From the IMG/VR virus record IMGVR_UViG_3300011334_000503: a stretch of DNA of 64,000 nt; one strand, 5' to 3'. The notes under the pieces are model-generated. The model was given only the letters and a program-made list of their open reading frames with translations, ran no database searches and was not told where the DNA came from. The position numbers and the translations under genes were made by a program. Positions 3,266 to 56,555 of this stretch are shown one piece after another. This DNA comes from an uncultured virus (IMG/VR IMGVR_UViG_3300011334_000503). Taxonomy: Duplodnaviria; Heunggongvirae; Uroviricota; Caudoviricetes. How positions within the stretch are numbered: position 1 is the first letter of the stretch; each line of letters begins with the position of its first letter.

Positions 3266-3901
3266 TCAACCTATTTTTGGAAAGAGAATTTCGCTCATAA
3301 AGTATCTTGCTCGATCTTCTCCTAATTTAGCTTTTAGTACATTATAAGTTCTTTGGTTTTTTTGTTGCTCTTCGCAATAGTAGTTTTGTCTATTTTTAAT
3401 TTCAAGTTTATCGTATTCTAAATTTACTCTTTCGATCAAACAAAGATCAATATACTTTTTGTATGCATCTACTACTATTTCGCTTAAAGTTTCAAGATCT
3501 TGATCATTTGGAACTATAGCAATGGCAGACTTAGAAAATATGTTATTTGCCCAGTCTGGAAGTTTATACAAAGAATCAAAAGATCTTGAAGATTGGTAGA
3601 CAATATTAGATACTGTAGGAGAATAGTCTAGAAACGCAGCTAAAGGTTTTTTATCTGTGGTAATCACATCGAATCCGAATATCGGATTTTGGCTGGTTTC
3701 GTTAGGAAAGGTAGTGATATGCAGAACTTCTAAATTTTTATCTGAATATCTTTCTATGTGAGCGATTCTAAAGTGTTTGGATACGTAACGATGATTGATC
3801 CACCCAAAATCTTCGGTTTCTATTTCTAGACCTTCTCCACTATTTGTGATTACTTCCTTAACTGTCTCTGCTATTTTATCCAGCGTAACTTTGTAACTCA
3901 T
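3266..3901 (-). CDS. pcyA: ferredoxin-dependent bilin reductase, PcyA/PcyX-like
   Basis: FRIAHIE, LEVLHITTFP, PIFGFDVI, AAFLDYSP, LPDWANNIFS, QNYYCEEQQKN, FMSEILFP match FDBR motifs; adjacent to a heme oxygenase. Confidence 0.8.
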   Translation of the reverse strand: MSYKVTLDKIAETVKEVITNSGEGLEIETEDFGWINHRYVSKHFRIAHIERYSDKNLEVLHITTFPNETSQNPIFGFDVITTDKKPLAAFLDYSPTVSNIVYQSSRSFDSLYKLPDWANNIFSKSAIAIVPNDQDLETLSEIVVDAYKKYIDLCLIERVNLEYDKLEIKNRQNYYCEEQQKNQRTYNVLKAKLGEDRARYFMSEILFPKIG

Positions 3902-4385
3902 CGTAAATTTTTATAACGTAATCTAATCCTATATTAGCTTCATCAGCCCAAGAATCTTGTTGTATAGCTCTAATACTAGATATAGCGGTTTGTTTATCTT
4001 CAAATTCATACATATTACCTGATCCTGGAACTTTAGATTTCATCATTTGTCCTCCATATAATAGGGCCAAGTAATTAAGATATACATGTGGTAACATTGA
4101 ATTATCATCTAGACCGTTTATATATTTTATATATTCTTTAGTAGAGTCTAGAGTGCTGAATATGAATCCACCAAGTTCGATTATATCTTTTTTTACGCTG
4201 TGAGATCTTGTCAAAGAATCGCTAGGTAGTTTTCTGCTCTCTATCTCTTTAAATATGTAGTATTGTTGAATTAAGTAATGAAGGTACTCGTCTTTACCTA
4301 GTTCGCCCTTATACATTCTTTGATTAAACTCTTTACTTTCTGCTATAGCGTGTTTTTCAGAGATCGCTTCTTTTAGTGGAATCAT
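3876..4385 (-). CDS. heme oxygenase
   Basis: LKEAISEKHAIAE (proximal His), YLHYLIQQYYIFKEIE, HVYLNYLALLYGGQM distal helix. Confidence 0.85.
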   Translation of the reverse strand: MIPLKEAISEKHAIAESKEFNQRMYKGELGKDEYLHYLIQQYYIFKEIESRKLPSDSLTRSHSVKKDIIELGGFIFSTLDSTKEYIKYINGLDDNSMLPHVYLNYLALLYGGQMMKSKVPGSGNMYEFEDKQTAISSIRAIQQDSWADEANIGLDYVIKIYDELQSYAG

Positions 4386-5179: not shown

Positions 5180-5827
5180 TTAAAATTTATTCCAATGTCT
5201 TTCGTAAACATGTAAATTAGTAACGTGCCAATGCATTTGGCCTATAGGATATCCAGTATTTTCTGATACTAACTCCATTAATTTAGAAAAACAATATTGA
5301 TCATTCCCGAAACCAAACCATAAGTCAATGGATCTAGCGAATACTGATAATTCTAATTTACCACGATGTATATAAAAGTTTAATGCAAAATTACAAGGTG
5401 TATCATATTTGTAAATGTCTAGTTCTTCTATATCGTAATGCACTAATATAGCTCGTCTTGAATTTGGATTATTTTTTAACTCTTCAATCATTCTATCTAG
5501 TTGATTATTTTTATTCCAAAAATAACCATAGTTAGACACTACGTTTGTAGTTCCAGGAATCATCATATTTTTCCATATCTTGGCTCTTTCAGATATCTCT
5601 AGAGCATCTCTATCTCCTTTAAGATACCAATCAAATTCGTAGTCAGCGTAGTCTTTATTAAATTTTCTTGCTGGTGTTTTTATAACTCTATCTAGTGGAT
5701 CTAATATTGTAAAAGTAGCATTAAAAATAGCTTTAGTTCCCGCAAAAAGATCACCGTGCTTATTAATATAATGATAAGATAATTCGAACGCTGTAGTGGG
5801 AGTCTTAAATTTATTGTTCTGTATCAT
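5180..5827 (-). CDS. thymidylate synthase superfamily protein, dCMP-specific type (dCMP hydroxymethylase/methylase/hydroxylase-like)
   Basis: NSRRA, DTPCN catalytic Cys, RSIDLWFGFGND (Asp at the ThyA Asn177 position, as in T4 gp42), NLHVYERH. Confidence 0.8.
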   Translation of the reverse strand: MIQNNKFKTPTTAFELSYHYINKHGDLFAGTKAIFNATFTILDPLDRVIKTPARKFNKDYADYEFDWYLKGDRDALEISERAKIWKNMMIPGTTNVVSNYGYFWNKNNQLDRMIEELKNNPNSRRAILVHYDIEELDIYKYDTPCNFALNFYIHRGKLELSVFARSIDLWFGFGNDQYCFSKLMELVSENTGYPIGQMHWHVTNLHVYERHWNKF

Positions 5828-6263
5828 ACTGTTCTACTGAGATGAATTGTTTTAAAAAATATACGCCTTCTAGATTTCTGTACTTAGTCAAATATACTAC
5901 TCTTTTTATTCCTGATTGTAAGATAAGTTTCGAGCAATCTAAACATGGAGACAGGGTTAGATATAAAGTTCCACCGTTTACGGAAGTTCCAGTTTTAGCC
6001 GCCTTAAGAATGGCATTAACTTCTCCGTGGATCACATGAGGTACGGTAACATTATCTTTTTCGCAACAGTTATCCATGCCAGCTGGGGTACCATTATATC
6101 CCATTGAAATTATGTTACCGTCTTTAACCAAAACTGCGCCGACTTTAAATCGGACGCAGTGTGAAAGAGTAGAGACCTCATTTGCTATATTCATAAAAAC
6201 TGAGTCCAGTCTTTTCTGCTTGTTAGCACGAAGAATCATGGTTTCTTTGATGCTTGGTGTCAT
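5811..6263 (-). CDS. dCMP deaminase
   Basis: KVGAVLV, GYNGTP, HGEVNAI, SPCLDC zinc motifs. Confidence 0.9.
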   Translation of the reverse strand: MTPSIKETMILRANKQKRLDSVFMNIANEVSTLSHCVRFKVGAVLVKDGNIISMGYNGTPAGMDNCCEKDNVTVPHVIHGEVNAILKAAKTGTSVNGGTLYLTLSPCLDCSKLILQSGIKRVVYLTKYRNLEGVYFLKQFISVEQYDTEQ

Positions 6264-6266
6264 AAC

Positions 6267-6572
6267 CTATAGCGATTCTTTTACAAAAGTTCCACCGACC
6301 ATAGTACCTTTACGCTTAGCGATAACATCGTAAGCTGAATTGATGCAGTCTTCTATTTTAAAACCTTTAAGCGCGGCAAGATTGGTAAGAACTACTACGC
6401 AGTCTCCGATAGCATCGATAAACTCTTCTTCATCGTTCTTTAGGATTGCTTTGGCCAATTCTCCTGCTTCTTCTTGCAATTTGATGTATTGTGTCTTTGC
6501 ATCTCCTTTTTCGTAAATTCCCCTTTCTTGCGCCCAGTCTCTGATTGATTGAAATTCGTTACTTAACGTCAT
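6267..6572 (-). CDS. MazG-like nucleotide pyrophosphohydrolase
   Basis: WAQERGI, KLQEEAGELA, DAIGD motifs. Confidence 0.85.
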   Translation of the reverse strand: MTLSNEFQSIRDWAQERGIYEKGDAKTQYIKLQEEAGELAKAILKNDEEEFIDAIGDCVVVLTNLAALKGFKIEDCINSAYDVIAKRKGTMVGGTFVKESL

Positions 6573-6858
6573 TTTGTTTTTCTTTTTGTTGTTTTTGATA
6601 TTCGTTTAGTGATGCCGCATAGGCGACAAGGTCTAGATAATTGTCCTCCTTATAATTCCAAGAAGCTCTGGATAGCTTTAAAGCCAGCATGCAATTGTAC
6701 ATATCGAATGTAGTTATTTCTTTTCTAGAAAGCTCAGATGCGATTCTTGCGGATTGTTCCATGCCTTCTATAAATTCACCATACATGCGACTTTTTTCTT
6801 CTTGTCTTTCAAATACAATCTCGTGAGCTTGTTGTAGTATGCTTTTTTCTTTATTCAT
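6559..6858 (-). CDS. DUF6378-like all-alpha protein often found in nucleotide-modification loci
   Basis: ILQQAHEIV...MYG...MLALKLSR...KEDNYLDLVAYAA; start re-called to ATG at 6858. Confidence 0.65.
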   Translation of the reverse strand: MNKEKSILQQAHEIVFERQEEKSRMYGEFIEGMEQSARIASELSRKEITTFDMYNCMLALKLSRASWNYKEDNYLDLVAYAASLNEYQKQQKEKQNDVK

Positions 6859-6875
6859 AACCAAATCTACTAAAA

Positions 6876-7760
6876 TTAATTGACATATTTGCTGATATCT
6901 CGGTGGTCACCCCATGGTCGATCAGAGTCTAGATCTTCTGTTTTTATGTTTGGCTTTGGCATGTTTGCCGCCACGTTCCAAAACCAATCTCCAGGTTTAC
7001 CGTGTTCTTTAAGCAATTCCCAACCTTTTGCGTCGTATGTTCTGATGCAATCAAACGGTGGTACGATCTTTGCTTCTTTTAAGAATGGTTTCGAGTGAGT
7101 GTAAAACTTTGCTCGACCAAGTTCTCCGTCTTGAATATTTCTTGCTACAGCTACCGCATGAAACTCTGTATTCGGTAGAGCAATTTGTAAAGATCTTGAT
7201 AAAACTCCAGTAGACATAACAGACCACATTGTTTTTATGTCTGTATCTTTAAAGTTATCGTAAAACACTCGAACTCCTCCAGCTACCACCATCTCGTGTT
7301 TAAGACCAAAAGGCAAAAATTTAGCTCCTATCTTTTCTGCGAACTGTTTTGCCCAAATGTTTGCGGTTGGCATTGCAGGTATTCTTAAAAAGATTGGAAT
7401 TCCTCCGTATTCTATAGCTGTCCTCTGGTGCTCAGAGGCTTCTTTGGACGCAGGCATAATTAGGTAAAGTTTCTTATTATACTTCTTTGCAAGATAGCAC
7501 AGTGAGAACGGGGCATATCCTGTACGCGGCGCTACATATACCATTGCATCTTCTTTTATTTGTGAGATAAAGAAGTCTGCCATTTTAGATTTGGTACCGT
7601 AAAGAAACTCACCGTCGTCTATTACTTTGAATCCCTCGATGTCTTTTATGGTAAAGGTAAAATCGTGTTTGTAGTCTTTGGTAAGATCTAAGTAGTACTC
7701 TAACGATCTTCCGTTTGCAAGATCTAGGTTAGAATCTCCTTTTGTTTTGTTTATGTACAT
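6876..7760 (-). CDS. PLP-dependent enzyme, fold type II (ACC deaminase/cysteine synthase-like)
   Basis: GTK Schiff-base Lys, GYAPFSLCYLAKKYNKK, VMSTGVLSRSL phosphate loop, YDAKGW. Confidence 0.75.
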   Translation of the reverse strand: MYINKTKGDSNLDLANGRSLEYYLDLTKDYKHDFTFTIKDIEGFKVIDDGEFLYGTKSKMADFFISQIKEDAMVYVAPRTGYAPFSLCYLAKKYNKKLYLIMPASKEASEHQRTAIEYGGIPIFLRIPAMPTANIWAKQFAEKIGAKFLPFGLKHEMVVAGGVRVFYDNFKDTDIKTMWSVMSTGVLSRSLQIALPNTEFHAVAVARNIQDGELGRAKFYTHSKPFLKEAKIVPPFDCIRTYDAKGWELLKEHGKPGDWFWNVAANMPKPNIKTEDLDSDRPWGDHRDISKYVN

Positions 7761-7761
7761 T

Positions 7762-8697
7762 TTATAGTATTTCGTTTAGGAAAGGATAGTATTTCGGGCG
7801 TAAGTGAACTGACTGCTTCATTTCTAGTATATCGAGCATCTTTGTTCCGTCTTGATCGACCCACTCGTCTGGCCACTGAATCGTTTTGAGTCCTGAATTG
7901 TTTATAATTCTATTTGCTGTATCTCTAAGGCGTTGACGTTCTTCTCTAGTTCCAAAGAATGGTTGCTTTTTATACAATCCTGTGCCAGGAATCTTTCTTG
8001 ATTCGTGTTCTACTGGAAGCAAGTTTACTAGAGTTACGTTGTTAAGTTGTTTTGCAAATTCTATGTACCTTCTAAATAGATCTCCTGTTGCAGCAGCAGG
8101 ATTTTCTTGTCTCATTAGATGGAAACGTGCGTCTATATTCCCAAAATAAAGAACTACTTCGTCAAATACTTCGTTCATTAATTCGGGAGTGTTACGCTTT
8201 AAGAATCCGTGTAGAGTTCTTCCTGCTGTGAAGTCCAAAGAATATCCAGGTCTCCATACTGATAGAGCGTGAGAGTCTCCGATCACTCCCTTTCTGGTTT
8301 CTAGACCGTGAGCCAAGAACGTGTTGTACCAAGGCACTGTGTTAACGTTCGGATAAGTTACGCCTTCGATCTTTAGTCTCTGATTGAACTTGTTGAAGTC
8401 GAAAAAGTGGTTGGAATACCTTAGCTCGCCTTTGTATTCGGCGATCGCTTTCATCTTTTCGTAGTGTAATTGACTTGGTCCACCTGGTATATTGAATGAT
8501 CCTGGTACGAAATTAACGCTTTCACAAATGTATAGTATATCGTAATCTTTCCAAGTAGATACTTTCGGATTCACGTCTACTACATCTCCAGAATGATTAT
8601 CTTTTAGCATTCTAGTCTGTATTAATCCGTACCCCGATCCTTGCGTGTTTAGAGTTGTACCTACATTACCTAGCATGCTGATTAATCCTATTTTCAT
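7762..8697 (-). CDS. two-domain protein with C-terminal SGNH/GDSL-like hydrolase or acyltransferase domain
   Basis: VIGDSHA (block I), YFGNID (block III), SVHL (block V). Confidence 0.55.
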   Translation of the reverse strand: MKIGLISMLGNVGTTLNTQGSGYGLIQTRMLKDNHSGDVVDVNPKVSTWKDYDILYICESVNFVPGSFNIPGGPSQLHYEKMKAIAEYKGELRYSNHFFDFNKFNQRLKIEGVTYPNVNTVPWYNTFLAHGLETRKGVIGDSHALSVWRPGYSLDFTAGRTLHGFLKRNTPELMNEVFDEVVLYFGNIDARFHLMRQENPAAATGDLFRRYIEFAKQLNNVTLVNLLPVEHESRKIPGTGLYKKQPFFGTREERQRLRDTANRIINNSGLKTIQWPDEWVDQDGTKMLDILEMKQSVHLRPKYYPFLNEIL

Positions 8698-8701
8698 AAC
8701 T

Positions 8702-9352
8702 TTAAATTTTGTAATACGATAATTTACCTGTTTTTATTCTGTATATAATAGCTGCTGAGGTTATTCCGTAGTGCTCTCCCGCATGCTTTAATGAATCAAA
8801 TATAATACTATTTTCTATATCTATAACTTTTTTTCTCTTGGTGCTGGGTTTTCCAAATTGAGAATTATCTTTTCCGTATCTACTTCTACCCATTTTTAAT
8901 TTTGATTCTTCAGAGTGTTTAAAATTAGCTAATTTGGCTTTAATTCTATCTATAACTTCTTTACTATGTTTTTTATTGTAAAATGGGTTATTTTCTCCAG
9001 TGTTTAGTTGAGCCATTTTTTTTCTTGCGTATTCGACCACTCTAGAATTAGGAACATAATTCTTTGCGCTAGTTGATTTAATGTGGCACATTTTGCTAAA
9101 CGCGTATGCCAACTTATGATTTTTAGGATATATTTCGTGCAACAACCAATGACATAAAAAATGCTCTCTAGCTGTTAATATAGCTATATTAGGATGATAG
9201 TACTGATCACTTTTTCCTAGTCCTCCCATACTTTCTGGTACTATGTGGTGACCTTCGTAGTACGCTTCTCCTAATTTTTTTCTTTTTACTCTATAATCGA
9301 CTTCTGCTTTAGACCTTTGGCAAATTTGATCATATATTTTTTGATAATTCAT
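8702..9352 (-). CDS. HNH endonuclease with NUMOD3-type DNA-binding repeats
   Basis: EGHHIVPESMGG...NIAILTAREHFLCHWLL; GENNPFYNKKHSKE, KHSEESKLKM; C-terminal IFDSLKHAGEHYG helix-turn-helix. Start re-called to ATG at 9352. Confidence 0.88.
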   Translation of the reverse strand: MNYQKIYDQICQRSKAEVDYRVKRKKLGEAYYEGHHIVPESMGGLGKSDQYYHPNIAILTAREHFLCHWLLHEIYPKNHKLAYAFSKMCHIKSTSAKNYVPNSRVVEYARKKMAQLNTGENNPFYNKKHSKEVIDRIKAKLANFKHSEESKLKMGRSRYGKDNSQFGKPSTKRKKVIDIENSIIFDSLKHAGEHYGITSAAIIYRIKTGKLSYYKI

Positions 9353-9362
9353 AAAATAAAAA

Positions 9363-9454
9363 TGGTCCAAAAAATAAAGGAGCTACTACCTTCCTAAATT
9401 TAATGGACCAATAAGTTTTATTATAGACAGTTGGTAGTAGCAACTTTCTATCTA
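9363..9454 (-). ncRNA. candidate structured RNA (two hairpins with complementary loops) in the HNH leader
   Basis: Pairings (+ strand coordinates): 9363-9369/9404-9410, 9378-9381/9392-9395, 9424-9433/9441-9454, plus 9-bp loop-loop complementarity 9382-9390/9433-9441. Confidence 0.6.
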
Positions 9455-12751: not shown

Positions 12752-15055
12752 CTAGTGACCGTCTCTGAAATTGTGGGCAATTGCTGGTGGTGCTTTTAGA
12801 GCTATACTAAGTTTGGTAGTATTCTCCATGCAATCTTGAACTACTTTAGCTGCATGCTCAGCTTTTCCTCCCTCTACTTCGCAAATGATCTGATCATGAA
12901 TCTGTGCACACACCCAACCGTTTATTCCCTCTTCCTTAAACCTTCTGTTGATTGCAATTGCCGCTCTGTTAACTATAGAAGAAGCGAGACCCTGAATCTG
13001 TACGTTTCTACTGTTGTTTACTCCATTTATGAAGTCTCTCTTAACGCTTTTGATCGCTTCTACTCCGTGTTCTCTTTCTAGCTGCTTTACGAAGTTGTAA
13101 TCTAGCATACCGTCTCCAACCTTTTCAAATATCTGCTTTACTTTTGGAAGGTGACGTATTCTACCTACTTGAGTTCTTATATAACCGTTTTCTTTTACGA
13201 ACTTTGCAGATTCTTCCATCCATTTTTTAAGTTCAGGAAATCCATTTAAGTAACCTTCTACAAGCACTTTAGCGTCTTTGGTAGATATGTCTAGGTTTTT
13301 ACCTAGAGCGTATGCTCCCATGCCGTAAGGAATACCAAGAGCGTAAGCTTTTGCCATGTTTCTAACCTTAGGCGCGAGCTTTCTTAAGTAGTTCTCAGCT
13401 TTTTTATCTGGGGAATACTGATCTAGCTTTTCTGTTTTGATGGCGATAGTGGAATAAAAATCCCAGTTGTTTCTAAAGATGTCTTTGAGTCCATCGTCTC
13501 CAGACACGTGAGCGAACACGTGAGGCTCTAGAGATTCGTAGTCGTTATCGATAAAGATGTTGCCTTCGTCGTGAATAAAGAATGCTCTTACTCGATTAGT
13601 ATATTCTACTACGATAGGATCGTCGTCTCCTTCCTCTTTTGGTCTAGGTAACTGTTGAGCATCAGATCCATATCTTCCTGATACGGTACCGTGTTGCTTG
13701 TAATAAAAATAGTACCTACCGTTTTCTTCTCTTTCTAAGAACCTTTCTACGTAAGTGGACTTTATCTTTAGTAGTCTATTATAGATTCTAAGGTTTTTTG
13801 CCCATTCGTGCTTGTCTGCTATCGACTGTATGAGATCGTCATCGAACTGTGGCTTACCTTTCTTGGTTTGAGACAGAGGTTTTATACCTAAAGCTCCAAA
13901 AGCAATTTCGCCTAGTTGATCCTTTGACTGAATGTTAAAGTAAAGTCCATCGTTATGTTCCTTCCACATTTCTAAACTTATCTTAGTAGCTAAAGTGCTA
14001 TCAAGATACTTTTGATCTCCTGTGACTAAAAACTCTTTAAGGTCTCCATCAGGCATAGATCTTATGTTGGCTTCGTTTAGATTAAACTTTCCAGTTTTTT
14101 CGGACTTTGGAAACTCTACGCCTAGCGTATTCATGTATCTATTTATCCAAGGACCTTTATTAGTAAAAGGAAAAGAATCAGTGGCTTTGACAATTACCCA
14201 GAGCTTCGTTTCTTGCTTAGACATTAGTTGATTTGTTACGTCATCTAAGTATCTTTTCATTGTCTCCTGTATCTCCAGATTAGTCTTGGAGATTAATTCC
14301 ATATCAAGCTTAACTCCTTTTTGTTCCATAGGAATAGTAACTTCCTTATAGAGTGGCATTACTTCGTCCTCAAAGAAAAGCTTGTCAAGATCTTCTTCGT
14401 AAAGCTTCTTTATAAAGTGATTGTAAAGTCTGAGAGTTAGATCAGTATCAGCGATGGCGTATTTACCAAGTATGTCTAGATCAGCTTTCCAAATCTCATA
14501 GTTGGCACTTGTGATAGATCCACCGTTAGCTTTGATAGAAGTCTTAAGCTCTATTTGTTCTTCGTTAGCTTCTTTTTCTATGTCTAAGCCTATTTCTTTC
14601 TGAATAGATTTTGCCAATTCTTTGAGACCAAAAGGTTTACCTGATCCGAATCCTGCGCCTTCTTCTTGAACTGTGTGTACCAATAGCAGTGTATCAGCGT
14701 GTAAGCTAGACAATAAATCTACTCCGTAGAAGTTCTTTACGAAAGGACCATCGAACGCAAAGTTGTGCGCGATTATTTTTTTGCCTATAAGAAAAGAGAG
14801 ATACTTTTTTGCTAGATCGTGAGACAGGATGTCTTCTATTTTGTAATCTACCAATTCTCCGTTTGAGAGAACCATTGTTGGTAGATAGTAACCTTGTCCT
14901 ACTTCTGCAGAAACAGAAAAACCAATGATTTTGCCTGTTCTCGAGTTAAGACTGTTGGTTTCTATATCGAATGCTATGATCTCTTTGTCTTTTACATGAG
15001 CGATCATATCTTTGAACTTGGACATACTGTCCACTAACACATAACTTTTTTCCAT
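12752..15055 (-). CDS. polA: DNA polymerase family A with 3'-5' exonuclease
   Basis: FDIET, HNFAFD, YAIAD exonuclease motifs; DYESLEP, RNMAKAYALGIPYG, QIHDQ polymerase motifs. Confidence 0.95.
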   Translation of the reverse strand: MEKSYVLVDSMSKFKDMIAHVKDKEIIAFDIETNSLNSRTGKIIGFSVSAEVGQGYYLPTMVLSNGELVDYKIEDILSHDLAKKYLSFLIGKKIIAHNFAFDGPFVKNFYGVDLLSSLHADTLLLVHTVQEEGAGFGSGKPFGLKELAKSIQKEIGLDIEKEANEEQIELKTSIKANGGSITSANYEIWKADLDILGKYAIADTDLTLRLYNHFIKKLYEEDLDKLFFEDEVMPLYKEVTIPMEQKGVKLDMELISKTNLEIQETMKRYLDDVTNQLMSKQETKLWVIVKATDSFPFTNKGPWINRYMNTLGVEFPKSEKTGKFNLNEANIRSMPDGDLKEFLVTGDQKYLDSTLATKISLEMWKEHNDGLYFNIQSKDQLGEIAFGALGIKPLSQTKKGKPQFDDDLIQSIADKHEWAKNLRIYNRLLKIKSTYVERFLEREENGRYYFYYKQHGTVSGRYGSDAQQLPRPKEEGDDDPIVVEYTNRVRAFFIHDEGNIFIDNDYESLEPHVFAHVSGDDGLKDIFRNNWDFYSTIAIKTEKLDQYSPDKKAENYLRKLAPKVRNMAKAYALGIPYGMGAYALGKNLDISTKDAKVLVEGYLNGFPELKKWMEESAKFVKENGYIRTQVGRIRHLPKVKQIFEKVGDGMLDYNFVKQLEREHGVEAIKSVKRDFINGVNNSRNVQIQGLASSIVNRAAIAINRRFKEEGINGWVCAQIHDQIICEVEGGKAEHAAKVVQDCMENTTKLSIALKAPPAIAHNFRDGH

Positions 15056-23416: not shown

Positions 23417-24724
23417 TTAATAAGTGGTAAAAGAATAATCTTTTCCATGAGTGTGTTTTGTAGGAAATCCGTCCTCTTCTAATATATTTTTTATACCTAA
23501 AAGAGTGTCTTTTCCGTCTTGTATAGAAAAATCAAACGTAAATGCGTCGTAAGTAATTAAAATAAGTTGAGTTTTCTTATGTAATAAATATCGCTTAATT
23601 TTCTCAATCTTCTCAACATTTGTTTTAGTTTCTAGGTTCTGAAGAGTATAATTAAATAGTTTGTACTTTGTTATAGAGCTGTGTTTTTTTACTATTCTGC
23701 CTGTAGGTAATACGTAAGATGACTGAACTTTATACTTTTTGAACTCGGCTTCTATGAAATTATGCATAGATGAAAAGAATTCTATGTGTTTGTATTGTTC
23801 TTCTACTCCACCATAAAGCTGTCTAAAAGTGATAGTCTTTGCTTGCTTGTATTCCTCCTCGGTAACTTCGTTTTCTGGCTTATTGTAGTATTGACTCGCT
23901 AGCATTTTATGAGTCGGTTCTGAGTTTGGCTGCGTTTCACTTACTAGTTTGGCAATTAGTCTCAAGTGATAAGAGTCAAAATCAAAGTCCACTAAGAAAT
24001 CATTTTTAGGAACAAAGCATGATCTATAGTCTCCGTCTTTTGGTATTGCTAAGAAGTTTACTCCAGAAAAAGAGTTTGTTGGTCTTCCTGTCAGATTGTA
24101 CAAGTTATAGTAAGAATACGCAATGCCTTCCCTAACTAATCTAGAGCTGTTTGAGAGTCCGTATACTTTTCTAAGTTGTTCTTCTTTGACGCCTATTCCG
24201 TTGCTCTCAACGTACTGGTATGCATCTAGGATACGCTTGTTGTAAGTCTGATCTACTTCTAATCCAATTAGGTACTTTATTTGATCGTAAAAGCACTCAC
24301 ATTTCTCATAATGCTTAGATATCGGTACAATTTTATCAGGATTTTCGATTCCTTTTTGGTAAATATGTCTGTGAAACTGAGTATCGCAGTTATATTCCTT
24401 AACATCATTGTTAGAATCTAACATTACTAAGTTAAGATCTACTACGTTTTTTAGATCTAAGTGGTAAGAGTGAAACTTAGCATCTATAACGTAGATCTTA
24501 GTGTGAGTACTTAAAAACTCTACAACTTCAGATATAGATAAAGAAAAACTTTCAGAGTGGTCTATTGCAAATATATATCCTTTCTCACCATTGTTATAGT
24601 ATACTAGAGAAGGCTTAGAAAGTTTTGGGTGATAAGAGCTATCAGATACAATAAGCTGTACAAAAGCTGTGTCGCTTCTTTCCAACCTAGATAACTGTTC
24701 CCTTTTTTCTATTATATAATACAT
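23417..24724 (-). CDS. divergent family A DNA polymerase-like protein
   Basis: TGRPTN, DFDFDSYHLRL (motif A), AKTITFRQLYG (motif B), LITYDAF (motif C). Confidence 0.75.
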   Translation of the reverse strand: MYYIIEKREQLSRLERSDTAFVQLIVSDSSYHPKLSKPSLVYYNNGEKGYIFAIDHSESFSLSISEVVEFLSTHTKIYVIDAKFHSYHLDLKNVVDLNLVMLDSNNDVKEYNCDTQFHRHIYQKGIENPDKIVPISKHYEKCECFYDQIKYLIGLEVDQTYNKRILDAYQYVESNGIGVKEEQLRKVYGLSNSSRLVREGIAYSYYNLYNLTGRPTNSFSGVNFLAIPKDGDYRSCFVPKNDFLVDFDFDSYHLRLIAKLVSETQPNSEPTHKMLASQYYNKPENEVTEEEYKQAKTITFRQLYGGVEEQYKHIEFFSSMHNFIEAEFKKYKVQSSYVLPTGRIVKKHSSITKYKLFNYTLQNLETKTNVEKIEKIKRYLLHKKTQLILITYDAFTFDFSIQDGKDTLLGIKNILEEDGFPTKHTHGKDYSFTTY

Positions 24725-38820: not shown

Positions 38821-39033
38821 TTAATCTTTAGACAATCCAAATTTAATCCACTTATACCACACTCTCTCATGTAAAAAATATATTAACGGTTTTATACATA
38901 ACTCTATTATTCCTACGGAAGAAGCCACCACAATATTGCCTGTGAGTATGTAACTAATTATCATTGTTTGTGATGTTCCTATACACCTATAGGATATGGC
39001 TTTAGCCAAGTGTCTCTTTATTGTTACCTTCAT
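38821..39033 (-). CDS. DUF2061-like small membrane protein
   Basis: RHLAKAISYR...KPLIYFLHERVW. Confidence 0.8.
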   Translation of the reverse strand: MKVTIKRHLAKAISYRCIGTSQTMIISYILTGNIVVASSVGIIELCIKPLIYFLHERVWYKWIKFGLSKD

Positions 39034-39373
39034 TGTCTATTATACCTTTTCTTATTTTTGTTCCACTGATATTTGAGATATCGCTTGGAGGCTCATGATA
39101 GATTACGTCATATCCAACTCCACGACCATAATTAACTGAATCTATGTCAGGAATTATCGAAACAAGCAATCTATCTTTATTTTCTATAAAGAAGTTTTCT
39201 TTTTTCAGATTTTCTAATATAGTCTGAGCGTTGTTAGGATTGTTTTCGTCTATTTCTACGTCTCTGATAGCGACCCAGACTAACTTTCCTTTCTGTAACT
39301 GTTGGTTGATTAACCACTCGTGGCCTTTGTGCCAATTTTGCCATCTTCCGATAAATAACGAATATTTTTTCAT
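39002..39373 (-). CDS. HxGH nucleotidyltransferase (cytidylyltransferase-like; candidate minimal ATP sulfurylase)
   Basis: FIGRWQNWHKGH and C-terminal ISGTKIR; overlaps the APS kinase gene. Confidence 0.7.
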   Translation of the reverse strand: MKKYSLFIGRWQNWHKGHEWLINQQLQKGKLVWVAIRDVEIDENNPNNAQTILENLKKENFFIENKDRLLVSIIPDIDSVNYGRGVGYDVIYHEPPSDISNISGTKIRKGIIDNEGNNKETLG

Positions 39374-39780
39374 ATACTTTTTATTTTATTTACGCATTCT
39401 TCTATTGACAATTTACTAGTATTCAAATGTAATACATTTTCTTTACTTGGGTAATCAAAATCTTCTACGTGGAAAGATTCTCTGCCTCTTTTTTCATCGT
39501 AAGTGAGATATATCCACTTAACTTCGTTACACATACTATTCAAGTACTCTCTAGATTCTTTGTACGGATATACCAAAGAAAGAATAACGTTGTATCCTAG
39601 AGAGTCTAGGTATATCGCTATATCGCTCGCTCTATTTAAGTTTTTTATTCTGCCTTCTCGACTGTAATCTTTGTTTGAAAACAACTGTCTCAAATTGTCT
39701 CCATCAATATTATGACCTTTTAACTGTTTTGCGATAGTACTTTTCCCTGAATGGGGCTGTCCAAACAATACGGTTACCAT
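39370..39780 (-). CDS. cysC: adenylylsulfate (APS) kinase-like protein
   Basis: GQPHSGKST P-loop, DGDNLR, DYSREGRIKNL, LVYPY. Confidence 0.8.
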   Translation of the reverse strand: MVTVLFGQPHSGKSTIAKQLKGHNIDGDNLRQLFSNKDYSREGRIKNLNRASDIAIYLDSLGYNVILSLVYPYKESREYLNSMCNEVKWIYLTYDEKRGRESFHVEDFDYPSKENVLHLNTSKLSIEECVNKIKSI

Positions 39781-39783
39781 ATC

Positions 39784-40605
39784 TTATTTTTTGTATTTAA
39801 AAGTTTCAAAATACCATCTAAAATTTTCGTATATCCAGTGACAAGTGTATTCTCCAAGAATATCTTTTGAATCATCAGGTAACGCTGATATTTTATTACG
39901 AATTGTATGATCTCCGTATATTCCATGTACAGTATCGTCTTCTACTGTTACTTGCTCTATGTGATTGTAATTGTGTTCGTACTGAGGAAGTCCAAAATAA
40001 TCATATACGCTTGTTATGACTGCTTTAGGATTTTCGCATAGATCTTCGTATCTTAAAAAAAGAAAATTGTTTGCTGTCTTGTCTAAAATAGACTGGTTTA
40101 ATTTTAAAAGCGCGTATCCAATTGGGTGAGACATTCCCCATATTTCAACTCTTTGTTGCGTAGTGATTCCAGTTAAGTCTTTGTTGTTTACTAGTCCGTC
40201 GTCTTTATCAGGATTGGCTCTAAACTTTTTCTCCATTGACGCAAAAATAGCCGGTAAATCTCTTACTAGTACTAATATTTTGGGATTTGGATTAATGTTA
40301 TTCAATAGAGAGTATTGAGCTCCCCAAGCTCTACTTTTGTCTAGTATGTATGGTTTGTCTGTTATAGCGCTAACGTATCCTTTTAAACCTTCTCTGCAAA
40401 AAGAGTACATACCTTTTTTCCACAATTCAGCGTCTCCGGCTTTAGCTTCTTGACTTCCATTATATCCTATTTTTGTGCCTAATACTAAGTCTACCATACC
40501 AGAAGTTGGAGTGACATAAAAATTAGGATTTTGTCCGATTATGTTTTGTAGTAACGTACTTCCTGCTCTAGGCATAGAAGATTGGTAAAATATGGTTTGT
40601 TCCAT
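39784..40605 (-). CDS. sulfotransferase
   Basis: MPRAGSTLL 5'-PSB loop, LVRDLPAIFAS 3'-PB motif, LRYEDLCENP. Confidence 0.88.
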   Translation of the reverse strand: MEQTIFYQSSMPRAGSTLLQNIIGQNPNFYVTPTSGMVDLVLGTKIGYNGSQEAKAGDAELWKKGMYSFCREGLKGYVSAITDKPYILDKSRAWGAQYSLLNNINPNPKILVLVRDLPAIFASMEKKFRANPDKDDGLVNNKDLTGITTQQRVEIWGMSHPIGYALLKLNQSILDKTANNFLFLRYEDLCENPKAVITSVYDYFGLPQYEHNYNHIEQVTVEDDTVHGIYGDHTIRNKISALPDDSKDILGEYTCHWIYENFRWYFETFKYKK

Positions 40606-40607
40606 TA

Positions 40608-41555
40608 TTATATGCTTTTTATTTTTTCTTCACTGAATATTTCTGTATAATCCATGTAAGGACATTCATGCAATACTCCATCTAAGTTGTAATCGAATAT
40701 GAATCCATCAATCTGTTTTGGAGCTATTTTAGGCTTATCTGCTACGATATTTGTGTGTAGATCGTATCCAAATACAGTAGGACACGTACCTATCCACAAA
40801 ACTGTTGAGGGCAATTTGAAAGATGCAGCTGCGTGTTGTAAACAAGAATCTATTAAAACTCTTTTACTAGACGAGATAAGAATCGCAAATAACTCCATGT
40901 TATTCATCGGCTGATCCACTACTTCTGCTCCAATTATCTTTTCGCAATCAGGTCTAGTTACTTGAAAGATGTGATAATCGTTTTTGTATTTTTTATATAT
41001 CTCGTTAGCTATTTCAAAAGGAATATCTCTACACCAAGAATAAGGATATTTTTGACCGGTTAACGGACCTCCGTTTGTTTGTAATACCATTGTTGGCCTA
41101 TCTCTAATCCACTGACGGACTGTCATTTGTTGGGCCATGTTAACAAAGATCTGTGGTTGTTGATTATTATACTGCACATCTATCAATTCTGACCAATTCT
41201 CTATGAGATGTTTTTTTCTTAGTATGTGTCCTGTTTGATGATAGGGTTCGTGTTTGTATATGATTGAATCCTTATCTTTTATATAATCTTCGTAAAAATA
41301 AGGTCTGCTTCCAGAAAAATACACCCTATCTGCGTAAGGATTGTTTAAGAATACTTCTGGATAGGAGACAACTAAGATTAGTTTTCTATCGGGATGTTTC
41401 TCTTTTATTGTTTGACATAGAGCTGTCGCTGCTATGTTTTTACCTAATCCGCCTTCTACTATCCAAATAATATATTTGTCTTCATTTGCTTTTTCTTTAC
41501 TTTCTCCAGCTAAAAAATTGTTTTTTATTTTTGGTACGTAAACGTTATTTTCCAT
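40608..41555 (-). CDS. glycosyltransferase, GT9 (heptosyltransferase)-like
   Basis: EGGLGKNIAATA, YPEVFLNNP, IDSCLQHAAASFKLPSTVLW. Confidence 0.78.
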   Translation of the reverse strand: MENNVYVPKIKNNFLAGESKEKANEDKYIIWIVEGGLGKNIAATALCQTIKEKHPDRKLILVVSYPEVFLNNPYADRVYFSGSRPYFYEDYIKDKDSIIYKHEPYHQTGHILRKKHLIENWSELIDVQYNNQQPQIFVNMAQQMTVRQWIRDRPTMVLQTNGGPLTGQKYPYSWCRDIPFEIANEIYKKYKNDYHIFQVTRPDCEKIIGAEVVDQPMNNMELFAILISSSKRVLIDSCLQHAAASFKLPSTVLWIGTCPTVFGYDLHTNIVADKPKIAPKQIDGFIFDYNLDGVLHECPYMDYTEIFSEEKIKSI

Positions 41556-42238
41556 TATATTATTTTTTTGAATAGTAACTCTGTTAAATTGTAAGTATCT
41601 CCTATTTTTTCTTTTGGCATTACGTTAAAAGCTATGCTTTTTCTTGGCATTTTGCTTTTATTTACAGGGACCGAATGAAACACGTGAGACGGAAATATTA
41701 ATAACAACCCTGGTGAATAGTTAACCGAAAAGACGTCCCAAGCGTACTCTGATTTTCTTCTATCGTTTTGATACTTTGGAGAAAGATAAGAGACATTAGT
41801 AGCAAATACGGGTTTGTGAAAAGATATTGCTGGCATATCTGGATCGTCTTCTCCGTAATAAAATACGCCTGATATTAAACTGTTTGGATGCGTATGCATC
41901 GTATGATGTTGTCCAGGATCTTTAATGGATATCCAAGATTGAGATAACGAATATTCTTCATAATCGTATAACATTATGTTTTTTCCAAAAAAATTAACGC
42001 TGTCTATTATAAAATTTTTTAAAGGTTCACACTCTTTAGCTTCTAGTATATATGTGTCTTTAGAATGATATCCATAATCTTGACTCATAGTTCCCATCAT
42101 TTCAGAGCGATCTAAAAAATCTATAGTTTTAGCTAGATCATTTTTAGTATATGTTGCAGTAAATAATGGACTCGGAAATAAAGGCAATACCTCTATTGTT
42201 TTTTGATCTAACATAACTTTTTTATTTATATCTTCCAA
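41555..42238 (-). CDS. 2OG-Fe(II) oxygenase-like protein (TIGR02466 type)
   Basis: LFPSP, HTHPNSLISGVFY, IFPSHVFHSV, RKSIAFN. Confidence 0.85.
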   Translation of the reverse strand: MEDINKKVMLDQKTIEVLPLFPSPLFTATYTKNDLAKTIDFLDRSEMMGTMSQDYGYHSKDTYILEAKECEPLKNFIIDSVNFFGKNIMLYDYEEYSLSQSWISIKDPGQHHTMHTHPNSLISGVFYYGEDDPDMPAISFHKPVFATNVSYLSPKYQNDRRKSEYAWDVFSVNYSPGLLLIFPSHVFHSVPVNKSKMPRKSIAFNVMPKEKIGDTYNLTELLFKKII

Positions 42239-42863
42239 AAATAATTTCGCTTATCGTTTCTTTGTCTCCTAAAGTTCCTTTTGTAAGAGCATTGACGCCT
42301 AAAGCTTTTCTAACTCTGTTAGTAGTATTTGGTGGAACTCCGTGAGTGAGGTATGATGGAAATATTATAAGATTACCTTGGTTTGGTTTAAAATAAATCT
42401 CTTCTTGAGAGTGTGGATAATTCTGAAAATCTGGTAATAAGGAAGGCTCTATATAAGATCTATTGTAAGATCTTGCTTCTTTGCTAAAGCAAATAGCTGC
42501 ATCATCTTCTTGTACGTCGTAGTAAAAAACTCCAGCTATTATAGTATTAGGATGCGTATGAGCTCTATGAAATTGACCAGGTTTTTTATAAGTTAACCAA
42601 GATTGTGCAAATTGAAGCTCTTTATATTCATATCTCATAACATCAGTAGCAAACTTTCTAAAGTGATCCATGATCCAATCTGATAGTGGTTTACATACTT
42701 CATTATCTATTACGTAACTATTTTTAGATATGGTTCCATAACCTCCATTAGGTTCGTTCATTTCTTGACTATCGAAATATTTTACTATATCTGTTAAGTT
42801 TTTATCGTACGTAGTCACATACAAAGGAGTAGGAAACAAATCAAATACTTTAGACTCTGTCAT
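42222..42863 (-). CDS. 2OG-Fe(II) oxygenase-like protein (TIGR02466 type)
   Basis: LFPTP, HTHPNTIIAGVFY, IFPSYLTHGV, RKALGVN. Confidence 0.85.
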   Translation of the reverse strand: MTESKVFDLFPTPLYVTTYDKNLTDIVKYFDSQEMNEPNGGYGTISKNSYVIDNEVCKPLSDWIMDHFRKFATDVMRYEYKELQFAQSWLTYKKPGQFHRAHTHPNTIIAGVFYYDVQEDDAAICFSKEARSYNRSYIEPSLLPDFQNYPHSQEEIYFKPNQGNLIIFPSYLTHGVPPNTTNRVRKALGVNALTKGTLGDKETISEIIFGRYK

Positions 42864-42864
42864 A

Positions 42865-43455
42865 TTAATCTTTTGCAGGTACTAGATTAAACGCTATAGA
42901 TATACGTTCTTTTTCGCTCTCGTTTCTTTCTACGTAGTGTTTTATCCAACTAGGAAAAAGATATAGAGTAGAAGTAACAGCTTTTTTTACGCAAACCGGA
43001 GAGTTTGCCATAGTGACCTCTTCCACTTTTCCGTTTAAAAAATAATCTGCGTTATCTGGTCTGACCAAAACTAGATCTCCCATGTTTTGTTCTGGAACGT
43101 CTACGTAATATACTCCTGAAAGGATACTTTTTTGATGATCATGCAACAAATTATAGTCGTGCTTTCCGTTAATGTTTATCCAAAAATTGCCGAATTTTAA
43201 TTCTATTCCAAGGTATCTAAAACAAACATCGTTTGAAAACACTGTTATATCGTTAATTAACTTATCTAAATCTTCAGGCGCAGGAGATAATAATTCATTA
43301 CTGTGCCAACCTCCTCTGTTTGATATTGTTGTACCAGGGAGTTTTTCTCTTGTTTGAAGACAGTAATCTTTTATCGATTCGTTATCTATTCCCGTAACTG
43401 GAACCTCCCATATAGGGGTAGGAAACCATAATTGTTCGTAAACTTTAAATTCCAT
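42865..43455 (-). CDS. 2OG-Fe(II) oxygenase-like protein (TIGR02466 type)
   Basis: WFPTP, SNRGGWHS, HDHQKSILSGVYY, FPSWIKHYV, RISIAFN. Confidence 0.85.
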   Translation of the reverse strand: MEFKVYEQLWFPTPIWEVPVTGIDNESIKDYCLQTREKLPGTTISNRGGWHSNELLSPAPEDLDKLINDITVFSNDVCFRYLGIELKFGNFWININGKHDYNLLHDHQKSILSGVYYVDVPEQNMGDLVLVRPDNADYFLNGKVEEVTMANSPVCVKKAVTSTLYLFPSWIKHYVERNESEKERISIAFNLVPAKD

Positions 43456-43471
43456 TATTTTATTTTTTCTA

Positions 43472-44092
43472 TTATTTAAAAGGTCTTCCGCCTGTCCAAA
43501 ATACTAAACACTTTCTTTGGCCTCTAGTTATCGGTGTTACTCGATGCATCAAGAATGATGGAAATATGATAACATCACCTTTTTCTCTAGGCACTGTAAT
43601 GAATTTATCTTTTGATCCCAACCAAATTTCAAAATCTCCTCCATCGTATTCCGAAGGATCAGAGAGCTGCACTGTCATAGCTAATTTTCTCTTATTTACT
43701 GCATAAGCTCCTACGTCCATGTGCCAATCTAGATGTCCCCCATCTTCAGGATATATAACATAATGAATAGGATCAGTAACGATGTCTATGTCGAATTTAA
43801 AAAGTTGTTCGTTTGCTTCTAAAGAAAGCGGAAATAACAACTCGTATAGCCACTTAGAGTGTAGATCGGGTTCTATATACGCGATGTCTCTATTATTTGT
43901 TTTTTTTGAATTTGTTACTGTTCCAAGTTCAGCTATTCCTGTAGTACCTTTTTCAAATTTATAATTATTATGTACCATATTTTCCAGATTAGAAATCATT
44001 TCGTCTGTAAATACGTTTTTAAAATAATAAAAGTTATTCCAATTACTTGTTGGAGTATCGTTATTGTAAGGCTTTAGGGAAATCATAACCAA
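43472..44092 (-). CDS. 2OG-Fe(II) oxygenase (PKHD/prolyl hydroxylase-like)
   Basis: DWHMD, RKLAMTVQLSDPSEYDGG, FPSFLMHRVTPITRGQR. Confidence 0.9.
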   Translation of the reverse strand: MVMISLKPYNNDTPTSNWNNFYYFKNVFTDEMISNLENMVHNNYKFEKGTTGIAELGTVTNSKKTNNRDIAYIEPDLHSKWLYELLFPLSLEANEQLFKFDIDIVTDPIHYVIYPEDGGHLDWHMDVGAYAVNKRKLAMTVQLSDPSEYDGGDFEIWLGSKDKFITVPREKGDVIIFPSFLMHRVTPITRGQRKCLVFWTGGRPFK

Positions 44093-44095
44093 ATT

Positions 44096-44677
44096 TTATT
44101 TGTAGTGCGTATACCAACCGGTAAGAATGTATTTATTTTCTGTGTTACTTGGAATGCCTCTGTGTAGGTGAGTCCAATCAGAAGGCCAAATTATAAGCTT
44201 TCCTTTTTCTGCTTTCTCTTTATGACCTTGATAGTAGAATTGAGTTTCTCCACCATCGTTAACCGTATTTAGGTAGATCATCCAAGCTAGCACTCGATTA
44301 GAATTAGTCAATCCTGCTCTTTCGCAATGCCATCCGTAAAATCCCTCTCCAGGTTGGTACCTTTGCATGTTAAAAGAAGTGTCTAGTCTGATGCTATCTA
44401 GTTTAGTCATAGCGTCTTCAAACTTTAGAGTATACTTCGCTACGTGATTTTCTATAACTTCGACTAGGTATTCTAAATGCTTGCTCCAAACTGGATTATT
44501 TAGATAAGTGGGATCGAAAGAAATATCAGTGGATTTTTTTATATCCTGCATTTCTACCAATTCTTCGTTAAATCTAAATTGACCTTTTCTTTTTAAAGGA
44601 GAATTTTCGAATAACTGTATAATTTCATCACAAAAAACCGTATCTAATGCTAGAGGACTAGAATAGATAAATTGCAT
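44096..44677 (-). CDS. 2OG-Fe(II) oxygenase (prolyl 4-hydroxylase-like)
   Basis: MQRY, WHCE, WMIYLN...GGET.F, WPSDWTHLHRG, KYILTGW. Confidence 0.9.
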   Translation of the reverse strand: MQFIYSSPLALDTVFCDEIIQLFENSPLKRKGQFRFNEELVEMQDIKKSTDISFDPTYLNNPVWSKHLEYLVEVIENHVAKYTLKFEDAMTKLDSIRLDTSFNMQRYQPGEGFYGWHCERAGLTNSNRVLAWMIYLNTVNDGGETQFYYQGHKEKAEKGKLIIWPSDWTHLHRGIPSNTENKYILTGWYTHYK

Positions 44678-51103: not shown

Positions 51104-51106
51104 TCG

Positions 51107-52578: not shown

Positions 52579-52588
52579 GGTATATTAA

Positions 52589-52987: not shown

Positions 52988-53006
52988 GTCTTTATTTTTT
53001 ATTATT

Positions 53007-56546: not shown

Positions 56547-56555
56547 TGACTTTTA

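Follow-up and report, generated by a model that had tools for sequence, protein, structure and literature searches.

Gene cluster and its association in two phage lineages

We describe a cluster of six genes, at positions 5180-8697 of a stretch of uncultured virus DNA (IMG/VR record IMGVR_UViG_3300011334_000503), whose content suggests a role in the hypermodification of cytosine in phage DNA. The whole stretch analysed, hereafter the window, comprises 64,000 nucleotides and belongs to a large uncultured phage whose tail is contractile (sheath, tube and baseplate genes) and which also encodes a family A DNA polymerase, a ribonucleotide reductase, a DnaB-like helicase, UvsX-like and gp32-like proteins, GroEL, GroES and Hsp20, a heme oxygenase and a bilin reductase. 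The six open reading frames (ORFs) lie on the minus strand and are tightly packed, no overlap or gap exceeding 17 nt; read from position 5180, the junctions are a 17-nt overlap, a 3-nt gap, a 14-nt overlap, an 11-nt gap and a 1-nt gap. In the direction of transcription they encode a protein in which a domain resembling the N-terminal domain of the T4 beta-glucosyltransferase (BGT) is joined to an SGNH/GDSL-fold domain (the BGT-N/SGNH chimera, hereafter the chimera), a fold-type II pyridoxal 5'-phosphate (PLP) enzyme, a DUF6378 protein, a MazG-type pyrophosphohydrolase, a deoxycytidine monophosphate (dCMP) deaminase and a thymidylate synthase (TS) homologue (Table 1). The first-pass annotation of this DNA had reported six packed or overlapping genes, and the ORF list confirms it, the order then given being that of minus-strand transcription.

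The Pfam matches of the TS homologue, the dCMP deaminase, MazG and the DUF6378 protein all exceeded the curated cut-offs. A blastn comparison of the 5180-8697 region with phage records gave two short, weak matches and nothing else. Promoter-like sites occurred at chance frequency (15 observed vs 18.7 +/- 4.2) and terminator-like sites numbered 7, with 3.4 +/- 2.1 expected; none of the latter was found on the minus strand inside 5180-8697, and a strong minus-strand site was located at 10062-10037, 3' of GroEL.

Loci related to the cluster were assigned to the window's own lineage (group A, 80 loci kept of 88 confirmed) or to a second lineage (group B, 80 kept of 236), and the association counts that follow include only loci with enough flanking sequence. 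As the pattern in group A could be largely inherited synteny, we examined the distant group B, whose members are T4-like and carry a family B polymerase, UvsX, a gp41-like helicase and ThyX. The identity of the PLP enzyme to that of the window was 69-100% in group A and about 41% in group B, where the chimera and the TS homologue showed about 27-30% and about 32% identity, respectively. In 56 of 58 group A loci the chimera gene was located upstream of the PLP gene at a distance of no more than 1.5 kb, the exceptions being L080, where an insert leaves the chimera 1.7 kb away, and L038, with no chimera in the locus. The two genes were adjacent, in reversed order with respect to the window, in all 74 testable loci of group B. 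A TS gene was found near the pair in 31/31 group A loci and, for group B, in 25 of 28 loci within 8 kb and in five of five whole records.

The remaining genes of the cluster were distributed less evenly. The dCMP deaminase gene accompanied the TS gene in 31/31 group A loci and had a match in 34 of the 80 group B loci. DUF6378 was present in 74/74 loci of group A and in 0/80 of group B, and MazG was found in 11 of 31 group A loci; no match to the window's MazG was detected in group B, one locus of which (L103) contains a MazG-like phosphoribosyl-ATP pyrophosphohydrolase (PRA-PH) gene. Only four of the 11 genes in the locus of a complete 152.7-kb group B genome matched the window, namely those for the TS homologue, the dCMP deaminase, the PLP enzyme and the chimera. 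These four genes are the conserved module, and MazG and DUF6378 are lineage-specific accessories. The six-gene operon initially proposed is therefore not conserved as a unit. The PLP and chimera genes, however, keep their proximity to one another in two distant lineages, and in both they accompany a gp42-type TS gene.

The gene order in group B is 42 - dCMP deaminase - ... - PLP - chimera - uvsX - ... - 41, and that of T4 is 42 - b-gt - segA - uvsX - 40 - 41. Since the pair lies between gene 42 and uvsX/41, it occupies in group B the slot of the T4 glucosyltransferase gene b-gt.

Table 1. Features of the cluster and of related loci. Positions refer to the window, except where a locus (L) is named; lengths are in amino acids (aa).
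Feature	Position	Strand	Details
TS homologue	5180..5827	-	215 aa; PF00303 (Thymidylat_synt) E 2.6e-25; phrog_160
Codons for TS motif RSIDLWFGFGND	5300..5335	-	residues 165-176
dCMP deaminase	5811..6263	-	150 aa; PF00383 (dCMP_cyt_deam_1) E 7.3e-27; phrog_174 E 1.2e-54
MazG-type all-alpha nucleoside triphosphate pyrophosphohydrolase	6267..6572	-	101 aa; PF03819 E 2.3e-8; phrog_1992/715
DUF6378 protein	6559..6864	-	101 aa; PF19905 E 5.9e-13
Fold-type II PLP enzyme, M6 gp52 family	6876..7760	-	294 aa; phrog_7093 E 9.3e-26
BGT-N/SGNH chimera, whole ORF	7762..8697	-	311 aa
Chimera, N-terminal domain, BGT N-domain homologue	8323..8697	-	residues 1-125
Chimera, SGNH/GDSL-fold domain	7765..8310	-	residues 130-311
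Extra proteins, group B locus	L103 5835-7978		
Extra protein, group A locus	L078 4953-5996		
Extra protein, group A locus	L080 4261-5301		
ORF233c of Aeromonas phage 44RR2.8t	L083 4992-7379		adjoins a sodium:solute symporter gene

A TS homologue with the signature of dCMP hydroxymethylases

The TS homologue belongs to the thymidylate synthase family (PF00303, 89.5 bits vs a cut-off of 24.3) and matched T4 gp42 (1b49) with an E of 3.2e-15. In the HMMER alignments its motif RSIDLWFGFGND aligned column for column with RSNDVVFGFRND of the T4 dCMP hydroxymethylase 1b49 and with RSNDMALGNPFN of B. subtilis ThyA, and the Asp at the position of ThyA N177 agrees with the initial view that this motif resembles that of gp42 and not that of ThyA. 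The catalytic cysteine, C145 in TPCN, aligned with the Cys of ThyA (C146) and of gp42. D176, contained in FGFGND, corresponds to ThyA N177 and aligned with FGFRND of gp42 and NPFN of ThyA; D142, located as in gp42 (SDFMC) three residues ahead of the Cys, corresponds to ThyA L143; and the RSID sequence keeps D168, equivalent to ThyA D169, the Asn of the 5-hydroxy-dCMP synthases of the RB69 gp48 type being absent. The window pattern D142-T-P-C145 plus R165-S-I-D168...D176 is therefore L143D, D169 retained and N177D, which is the pattern of T4 gp42.

The meaning of these three positions has been described for this family. According to a 2026 paper (PMC13326640), N177D leads to the use of dCMP as substrate, L143D/E accompanies a hydroxymethyl instead of a methyl product and relates to water access, and D169N is the mark of the flavin-dependent 5-hydroxy-dCMP synthases of RB69 and DLP3; in the same paper the combination L143D, D169 and N177D is assigned to 5-hydroxymethyl-dCMP synthases, ThyA having L, D and N. 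The TS homologue of the window thus has the cytosine-type Asp switch, together with the two other residues by which hydroxymethylases differ from methylases and from 5-hydroxy-dCMP synthases.

A motif script, in which only loci with a motif-bearing ORF of at least 120 aa were counted, detected the L143D/D169/N177D signature in 63/63 TS ORFs of group A and in 43 of 44 of group B. The group B exception was a 308-aa ThyA-like protein with Asp at position 177. This protein (L171/L105, record G010) matched PF00303 with an E of 2.8e-54 and has the Asp of the N177 position in a PLD motif; the record, classed as a provirus, also carries the PLP/chimera pair, and the protein is possibly a dCMP methyl- or hydroxymethyl-transferase from a different branch.

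In the group A relative G006 a canonical ThyA (E 5e-98, with N177) is encoded besides the gp42-type paralogue and about 42 kb away from it, a distance at which an equivalent gene would fall outside the window. Five group A records yielded no ThyX, which is present in group B. The nearest record, G001 (32 kb), contains neither TS nor ThyX and was uninformative in this respect. The separate ThyA of G006 and ThyX of group B imply that the gp42-type paralogue is an extra enzyme, as is the product of gene 42 in T4.

The same residues bear on whether the product could be 5-methyl-dCMP, 5-hydroxy-dCMP or dTMP instead of 5-hydroxymethyl-dCMP, in which case the downstream substrate would differ. The precedent is RB69 gp48, which passed for a hydroxymethylase for a long time and in fact produces 5-hydroxy-dCMP (PMC13326640), and the TS homologue of the window is also shorter than T4 gp42 (246 aa). 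We nevertheless consider such a product very improbable: D169 is kept here, and nine further 5-hydroxy-dCMP synthases that were chosen for D169N and tested all made 5-hydroxycytosine, according to the same paper, in which Asp at the L143 position is found in T4 gp42 and MilA and Asp at N177 goes with dCMP. The separate canonical ThyA of G006 also counts against this alternative.

The PLP enzyme and the BGT-N/SGNH chimera

The AlphaFold model of the PLP enzyme (predicted local distance difference test score, pLDDT, 97) matched fold-type II PLP enzymes in Foldseek, among them threonine deaminase (E 1.5e-9), serine racemase and CysK/CysM, as well as the 1-aminocyclopropane-1-carboxylate deaminase homologue 1j0a with a template modelling (TM) score of 0.69; the fold named in the first-pass annotation was thus recovered. 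A profile-free search of 1.84 billion representatives gave 812 relatives, and in an alignment of 67 sequences Lys57, located in a VxDD...GTK motif, and Asn262 were invariant. Single-sequence phmmer searches of PDB sequences with the PLP and SGNH proteins gave nothing, and searches with the distant PLP representatives P0131 and P0166 gave no viral loci.

The PHROG to which the window protein was assigned is also that of gp52 from phage M6, which matched phrog_7093 over its full length and as the top-scoring family (E 2e-159). A direct comparison of the PLP family profile with M6 gp52 (hhalign) gave a probability of 98.7% and an E of 3.3e-16 over 222 columns, placed Lys57 on Lys36 of gp52, and revealed a C-terminal PFP...YDxKAW...FWN motif common to both. 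PMC8989533 reports that gp52 decarboxylates C-alpha-glycinylthymidine in DNA, as determined experimentally, and names K36 as the likely aldimine lysine. These comparisons place the window PLP enzyme in the M6 gp52 family.

A Pfam scan of 49 mostly longer representatives of the PLP family identified fusions to N6_N4 DNA methylases (12), YunG (8), PCIF1-like methylases (4), Asp/Arg hydroxylases (2) and the helical domain of the 5-hydroxymethyldeoxyuridine (5-hmdU) DNA kinase (1). In Erythrobacter phage ZS04 (L081 2326-4764) the PLP domain lies between the S-adenosylmethionine (SAM)-binding and PPY motifs of a ParB-fused N6/N4 DNA methylase, and in Microcystis phage Mae-JY30 (L082 5983-6693) it follows two ParB genes. 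The methylase-inserted domains suggest a second PLP-dependent DNA modification, built on a methylase scaffold.

The second member of the pair had been labelled an SGNH-like protein. This label stands for residues 130-311, which matched SGNH/GDSL hydrolases in the structural model (pLDDT 88.5), and is incomplete for residues ~1-125, which form a separate alpha/beta domain that resembles BGT. The chimera family matched T4 b-gt with an hhalign probability of 90.9% (E 1.2e-6; 112 columns; BGT residues 1-122). T4 BGT was also the top match of the chimera family profile among 177,635 PDB sequences, with an E of only 0.2; Foldseek with the chimera model returned 1qkj at rank 44; and PF09198 gave sub-threshold matches on the 5' part of group B chimera orthologues (E 5e-4 and 1.3e-3), this family being used without a positive control, as it was silent in RB3, whose beta-glucosyl enzyme differs. 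The match to BGT stops where the UDP-glucose half would start, and the C-terminal UDP-glucose-binding domain is not present. Together, these results show that residues ~1-125 of the chimera are homologous to the N-terminal domain of T4 BGT. In BGT itself, the DNA acceptor is held on the side of this N-terminal domain.

The invariant residues of the SGNH domain are G140-D141-S142-H143, G186-x-I188-D189 and H298, and in 29 sequences G140-D141-S142, G186-N187-I188-D189 and H298 were invariant or nearly so; we take them to be the GDS serine of block I, the GxND of block III and the histidine of block V. A dedicated search for longer fused forms of the chimera found none, which is weak evidence. 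The chimera appears to be a previously undescribed architecture, half of a DNA glucosyltransferase joined to a putative esterase/acyltransferase domain.

Matches to the chimera were present in 43 phage records, 38 of them from Aeromonas, three from Tenacibaculum and two from Stenotrophomonas phages. In the cultured, T4-like Aeromonas phages 44RR2.8t, 31 and 25 it makes up the N-terminal 335 residues of ORF233c, a protein of 795 aa (30% identity, E 1e-23 to 1e-28; TM 0.79 with the BFVD model). The 426-aa C-terminal domain of ORF233c, lacking in the window chimera, matched the helical domain of the 5-hmdU kinase only below threshold (E 7e-4). Phage 44RR encodes both a TS of the gp42 type (SDFMC...RSND...GYRND) and a normal td, and the PLP gene was not found in its genome. 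In a 2010 review, phages 44RR, 31 and 25 are described as having genes 42 and 56 and no glucosyltransferase, and an alternative modification of 5-hydroxymethylcytosine (hmC) is left undecided (PMC2993671). The chimera is thus a candidate answer to the question of what these phages do with hmC.

A further conserved protein of ~350-390 aa, with an invariant R..GS.INY motif, adjoins the PLP gene in group B, where it was no more than 1.5 kb away in 64 of 71 loci and is joined by a 329-aa companion; in three divergent group A loci, L078-L080, it is located between the chimera and the PLP gene. BLASTP of the 390-aa and 329-aa group B proteins against 44RR ORF233c gave nothing, and hhalign of the 390-aa family against the C-terminal domain of the 44RR protein and against M6 gp51 gave 0.1%. 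Sixteen members of this family had no common Pfam family and no nucleic-acid-modification family at E<=1. A middling match (57.5%, E 1e-4, hhalign) was obtained with the N-terminal region of P0216, a fusion of the 5-hmdU kinase helical domain with a PLP domain.

The relatives described in this section also bear on the notion that hmC DNA is left plain or is finished in some other way, and that the PLP enzyme and the chimera are an unrelated pair acting on a metabolite or a cell-envelope sugar, for instance through a cysteine-synthase-like beta-replacement with an O-acetyl donor, or as an O-acetylesterase. Among the structural neighbours of the PLP enzyme are indeed CysK/CysM and O-ureido-serine synthase, and the SGNH domain has sialate and peptidoglycan O-acetyl esterases and transferases as neighbours; auxiliary metabolic genes also abound in the window (heme oxygenase, bilin reductase, sulfotransferase and 2-oxoglutarate (2OG) oxygenases). 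We regard this explanation as improbable, because the closest relatives of known function, M6 gp52 and the T4 BGT N-domain, are both from DNA-base enzymes, members of the PLP family occur as fusions with DNA methylases and with the helical domain of the 5-hmdU kinase, and the pair accompanies a gp42-type TS across two lineages, lying in the b-gt slot in group B.

Predicted route of cytosine modification and its alternatives

We consider it rather likely that the cluster of this large, uncultured myovirus-like phage specifies a system for cytosine modification in two stages, in which hmC would be made as a nucleotide, incorporated, and decorated in DNA by ester-forming and PLP enzymes. In the first stage the TS homologue would convert dCMP to 5-hydroxymethyl-dCMP as T4 gp42 does, the dCMP deaminase would feed dUMP to the separate thymidylate synthase, MazG would probably keep dCTP low in the way gp56 does in T4, and hmC would enter DNA through the phage polymerase. 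In the second stage the chimera would dock on hmC in DNA through its BGT-N-like domain, and its SGNH Ser/His domain, replacing the UDP-glucose half, would make or exchange an ester at the 5-CH2OH group via an acyl-serine intermediate; the gp52-like PLP enzyme would act on a portion of the adduct that derives from an amino acid, decarboxylation being the simplest case. In a variant of this route the ester would serve as a leaving group for a PLP-stabilised nucleophile. The outcome would be a non-sugar cytosine hypermodification formed without a 5-hmdU-type DNA kinase or an amino acid:DNA transferase.

The first-pass annotation had proposed that a 5-substituted deoxycytidine is made at the nucleotide level and then elaborated. 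The residues of the TS switch and the family of the PLP enzyme agree with this idea, except that elaboration is now argued to take place on DNA after replication and not on nucleotides, since gp52 and BGT, to which the pair is homologous, both act on DNA.

It had also been stated that no glycosyltransferase, DNA kinase or amino acid:DNA transferase is recognisable in the cluster. This is correct for the last two: PF18724 (amino acid:DNA transferase) and PF18748 (5-hmdU DNA kinase) were each absent from five related records, of which three have a completeness rating of 99% or more, both controls (M6 and ViI) being positive for each family, and neither had a match among the 67 window ORFs scanned with Pfam. 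The statement needs amending for the glycosyltransferase, as the SGNH protein has glycosyltransferase ancestry in its BGT N-domain. PF11440 (alpha-glucosyltransferase) matched only the RB3 control and none of the relatives, and no radical SAM gene was found in the cluster. A literature search of limited scope retrieved no description of a BGT-N/SGNH protein, nor of a gp52-type PLP enzyme paired with a dCMP hydroxymethylase.

A different logic of modification can also be envisaged, in which the SGNH enzyme is a hydrolase that removes or edits a group, in maturation or in erasing a mark of the host or a competitor, or the PLP enzyme makes a donor before transfer, or the hmC nucleotide is the target. 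SGNH enzymes are mostly hydrolases, the typical reactions of fold-type II PLP enzymes are beta-eliminations or beta-replacements with free amino acids as substrates, and a gene for donor synthesis was not recognised in the cluster by the Pfam and PHROG scans. We think this unlikely, given that the nearest characterised relative, gp52, acts on a DNA-bound substrate (PMC8989533) and that the N-domain of the chimera is homologous to that of a DNA glucosyltransferase.

Several observations weigh against the two-stage route that we favour. Each of its functional steps is drawn from homology and gene association, and groups A and B, which both have T4-like parts, are distant without being fully independent. 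The 294-aa PLP enzyme and the 311-aa chimera are without a Pfam match even at E<=1, and the chimera also lacks an NCBIfam match at E<=0.1. The block V acid of the SGNH domain (DxxH) is non-canonical, a Gln being found three residues before H298, although the invariant E292 might substitute for it. The two genes of the pair also occur apart: the Aeromonas phages have the chimera without the PLP gene, the chimera is not beside the PLP gene in L038, nor in L040, where GroEL directly adjoins the latter, and the Erythrobacter and Microcystis siphophages with the PLP family have neither the TS homologue nor the chimera. These phages, together with the methylase fusions, imply a general DNA-modification PLP family not tied to hmC alone. 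The protein of ~350-390 aa is absent from the window (best E 0.14 over 273 ORFs), so that the set of the window may be incomplete or work differently. Furthermore, ViI gp226, the other decarboxylase to have been characterised, is only weakly similar to the PLP enzyme (hhalign probability 3.6%) although the lysines align, and the PLP family profile had no match in the ViI genome. Finally, an alpha-carboxyl ester could not be decarboxylated, and a sequence of acylation followed by decarboxylation would therefore need a side-chain linkage or another PLP reaction.

A more specific chemistry, which we put forward as possible but doubtful, is that the chimera O-acylates hmC and the ester acts as leaving group, with the PLP enzyme joining an amino-acid carbanion or amine to the 5-methylene carbon and then decarboxylating it. 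If true, this acyl-activation route would lead to an aminoalkyl-cytosine (e.g. the cytosine counterpart of the 5-(2-aminoethyl)uracil of M6) and would need no DNA kinase, amino acid:DNA transferase or radical SAM isomerase; it would represent the first acyl-activated DNA base intermediate and a new PLP bond-forming reaction on DNA.

Among known systems, the T4 glucosylation pathway (gp42, gp56, cd, td, alpha-gt, beta-gt) shares with the two-stage route a gp42-type TS, a dCMP deaminase, a pyrophosphohydrolase and, in relatives of the window, a separate thymidylate synthase; the first ~125 residues of the chimera are homologous to BGT-N, and the group B pair lies between 42 and uvsX, like b-gt. 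In contrast to T4, an SGNH Ser/His domain takes the place of the UDP-glucose half, no alpha-glucosyltransferase was found, a PLP enzyme is added and the window phage has a family A polymerase. The thymine pathways of M6, ViI and PaMx11 (dUMP hydroxymethylase, 5-hmdU DNA kinase, amino acid:DNA transferase, PLP decarboxylase and radical SAM isomerase) have a PLP enzyme of the gp52 family and follow the same logic, a hydroxymethylpyrimidine made as a nucleotide and tailored on DNA, whereas here the base would be cytosine and not uracil, as judged by the Asp switch, the kinase and transferase are absent in relatives, and an SGNH chimera is found instead. To our knowledge, non-sugar hypermodifications on hydroxymethylpyrimidines are almost all on thymine and begin with a DNA kinase.

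In the 5-hydroxycytosine arabinosylation of RB69 and DLP3, cytosine hypermodification is likewise started by a TS homologue that combines N177D with an acidic residue at L143; that system differs in flavin binding, in its downstream glycosyltransferases and in D169N, D169 being kept by the window TS (PMC13326640). The Aeromonas phages 44RR2.8t, 31 and 25 have the same BGT-N plus SGNH chimera in ORF233c and, in 44RR, a gp42-type TS, and all three are reported to lack glucosyltransferases (PMC2993671); they differ from the window in the 426-aa C-terminal domain and, for the 44RR genome, in the lack of a PLP gene.

The module is present on hundreds of aquatic viral contigs. The association of a predicted cytosine-specific hydroxymethylase with a gp52-type PLP enzyme and the chimera leads us to expect a novel cytosine adduct, together with a new means to activate or decorate hmC, and new DNA-modifying enzymes of this kind would be useful for the labelling and sequencing of 5hmC.

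A homing endonuclease gene of the NUMOD3/I-TevI type (8702-9370, minus strand) lies directly upstream of the chimera gene and is not a member of the module. Its homologues are found elsewhere in relatives, for example in the gap between the dCMP deaminase and TS genes in L010 and in that between the chimera and PLP genes in L029 and L059. These varied positions imply that the cluster is a target of mobile endonucleases, like the 42/b-gt/segA region of T4.

On the other side of the cluster, a heme oxygenase gene followed by a ferredoxin-dependent bilin reductase gene (3266-4385, minus strand), a phage pair for pigment metabolism that only some relatives have, lies near genes for a non-specific endonuclease and a thioredoxin. 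Besides the main PolA at 12752-15055, the window contains another ORF, of 435 aa, that resembles part of a family A polymerase (23417-24724, minus strand; PF00476 E 1.3e-9). An adenosine 5'-phosphosulfate (APS)-kinase-like gene seemingly split into two ORFs (39002-39373 and 39370-39780, minus strand) is followed by a sulfotransferase gene (39784-40605), a gene for a 315-aa protein and five tandem 2OG-Fe(II) oxygenase paralogues (41555-44677, minus strand); this run, 39002-44677, could be a candidate sulfation/hydroxylation cassette. Five paralogous genes annotated as virion structural proteins (phrog_10356) occupy 50207-57440 of the minus strand; three of their products weakly matched an arabinofuranosidase catalytic domain and one a carbohydrate-binding module, and they are likely receptor-binding or glycan-degrading fibre proteins.

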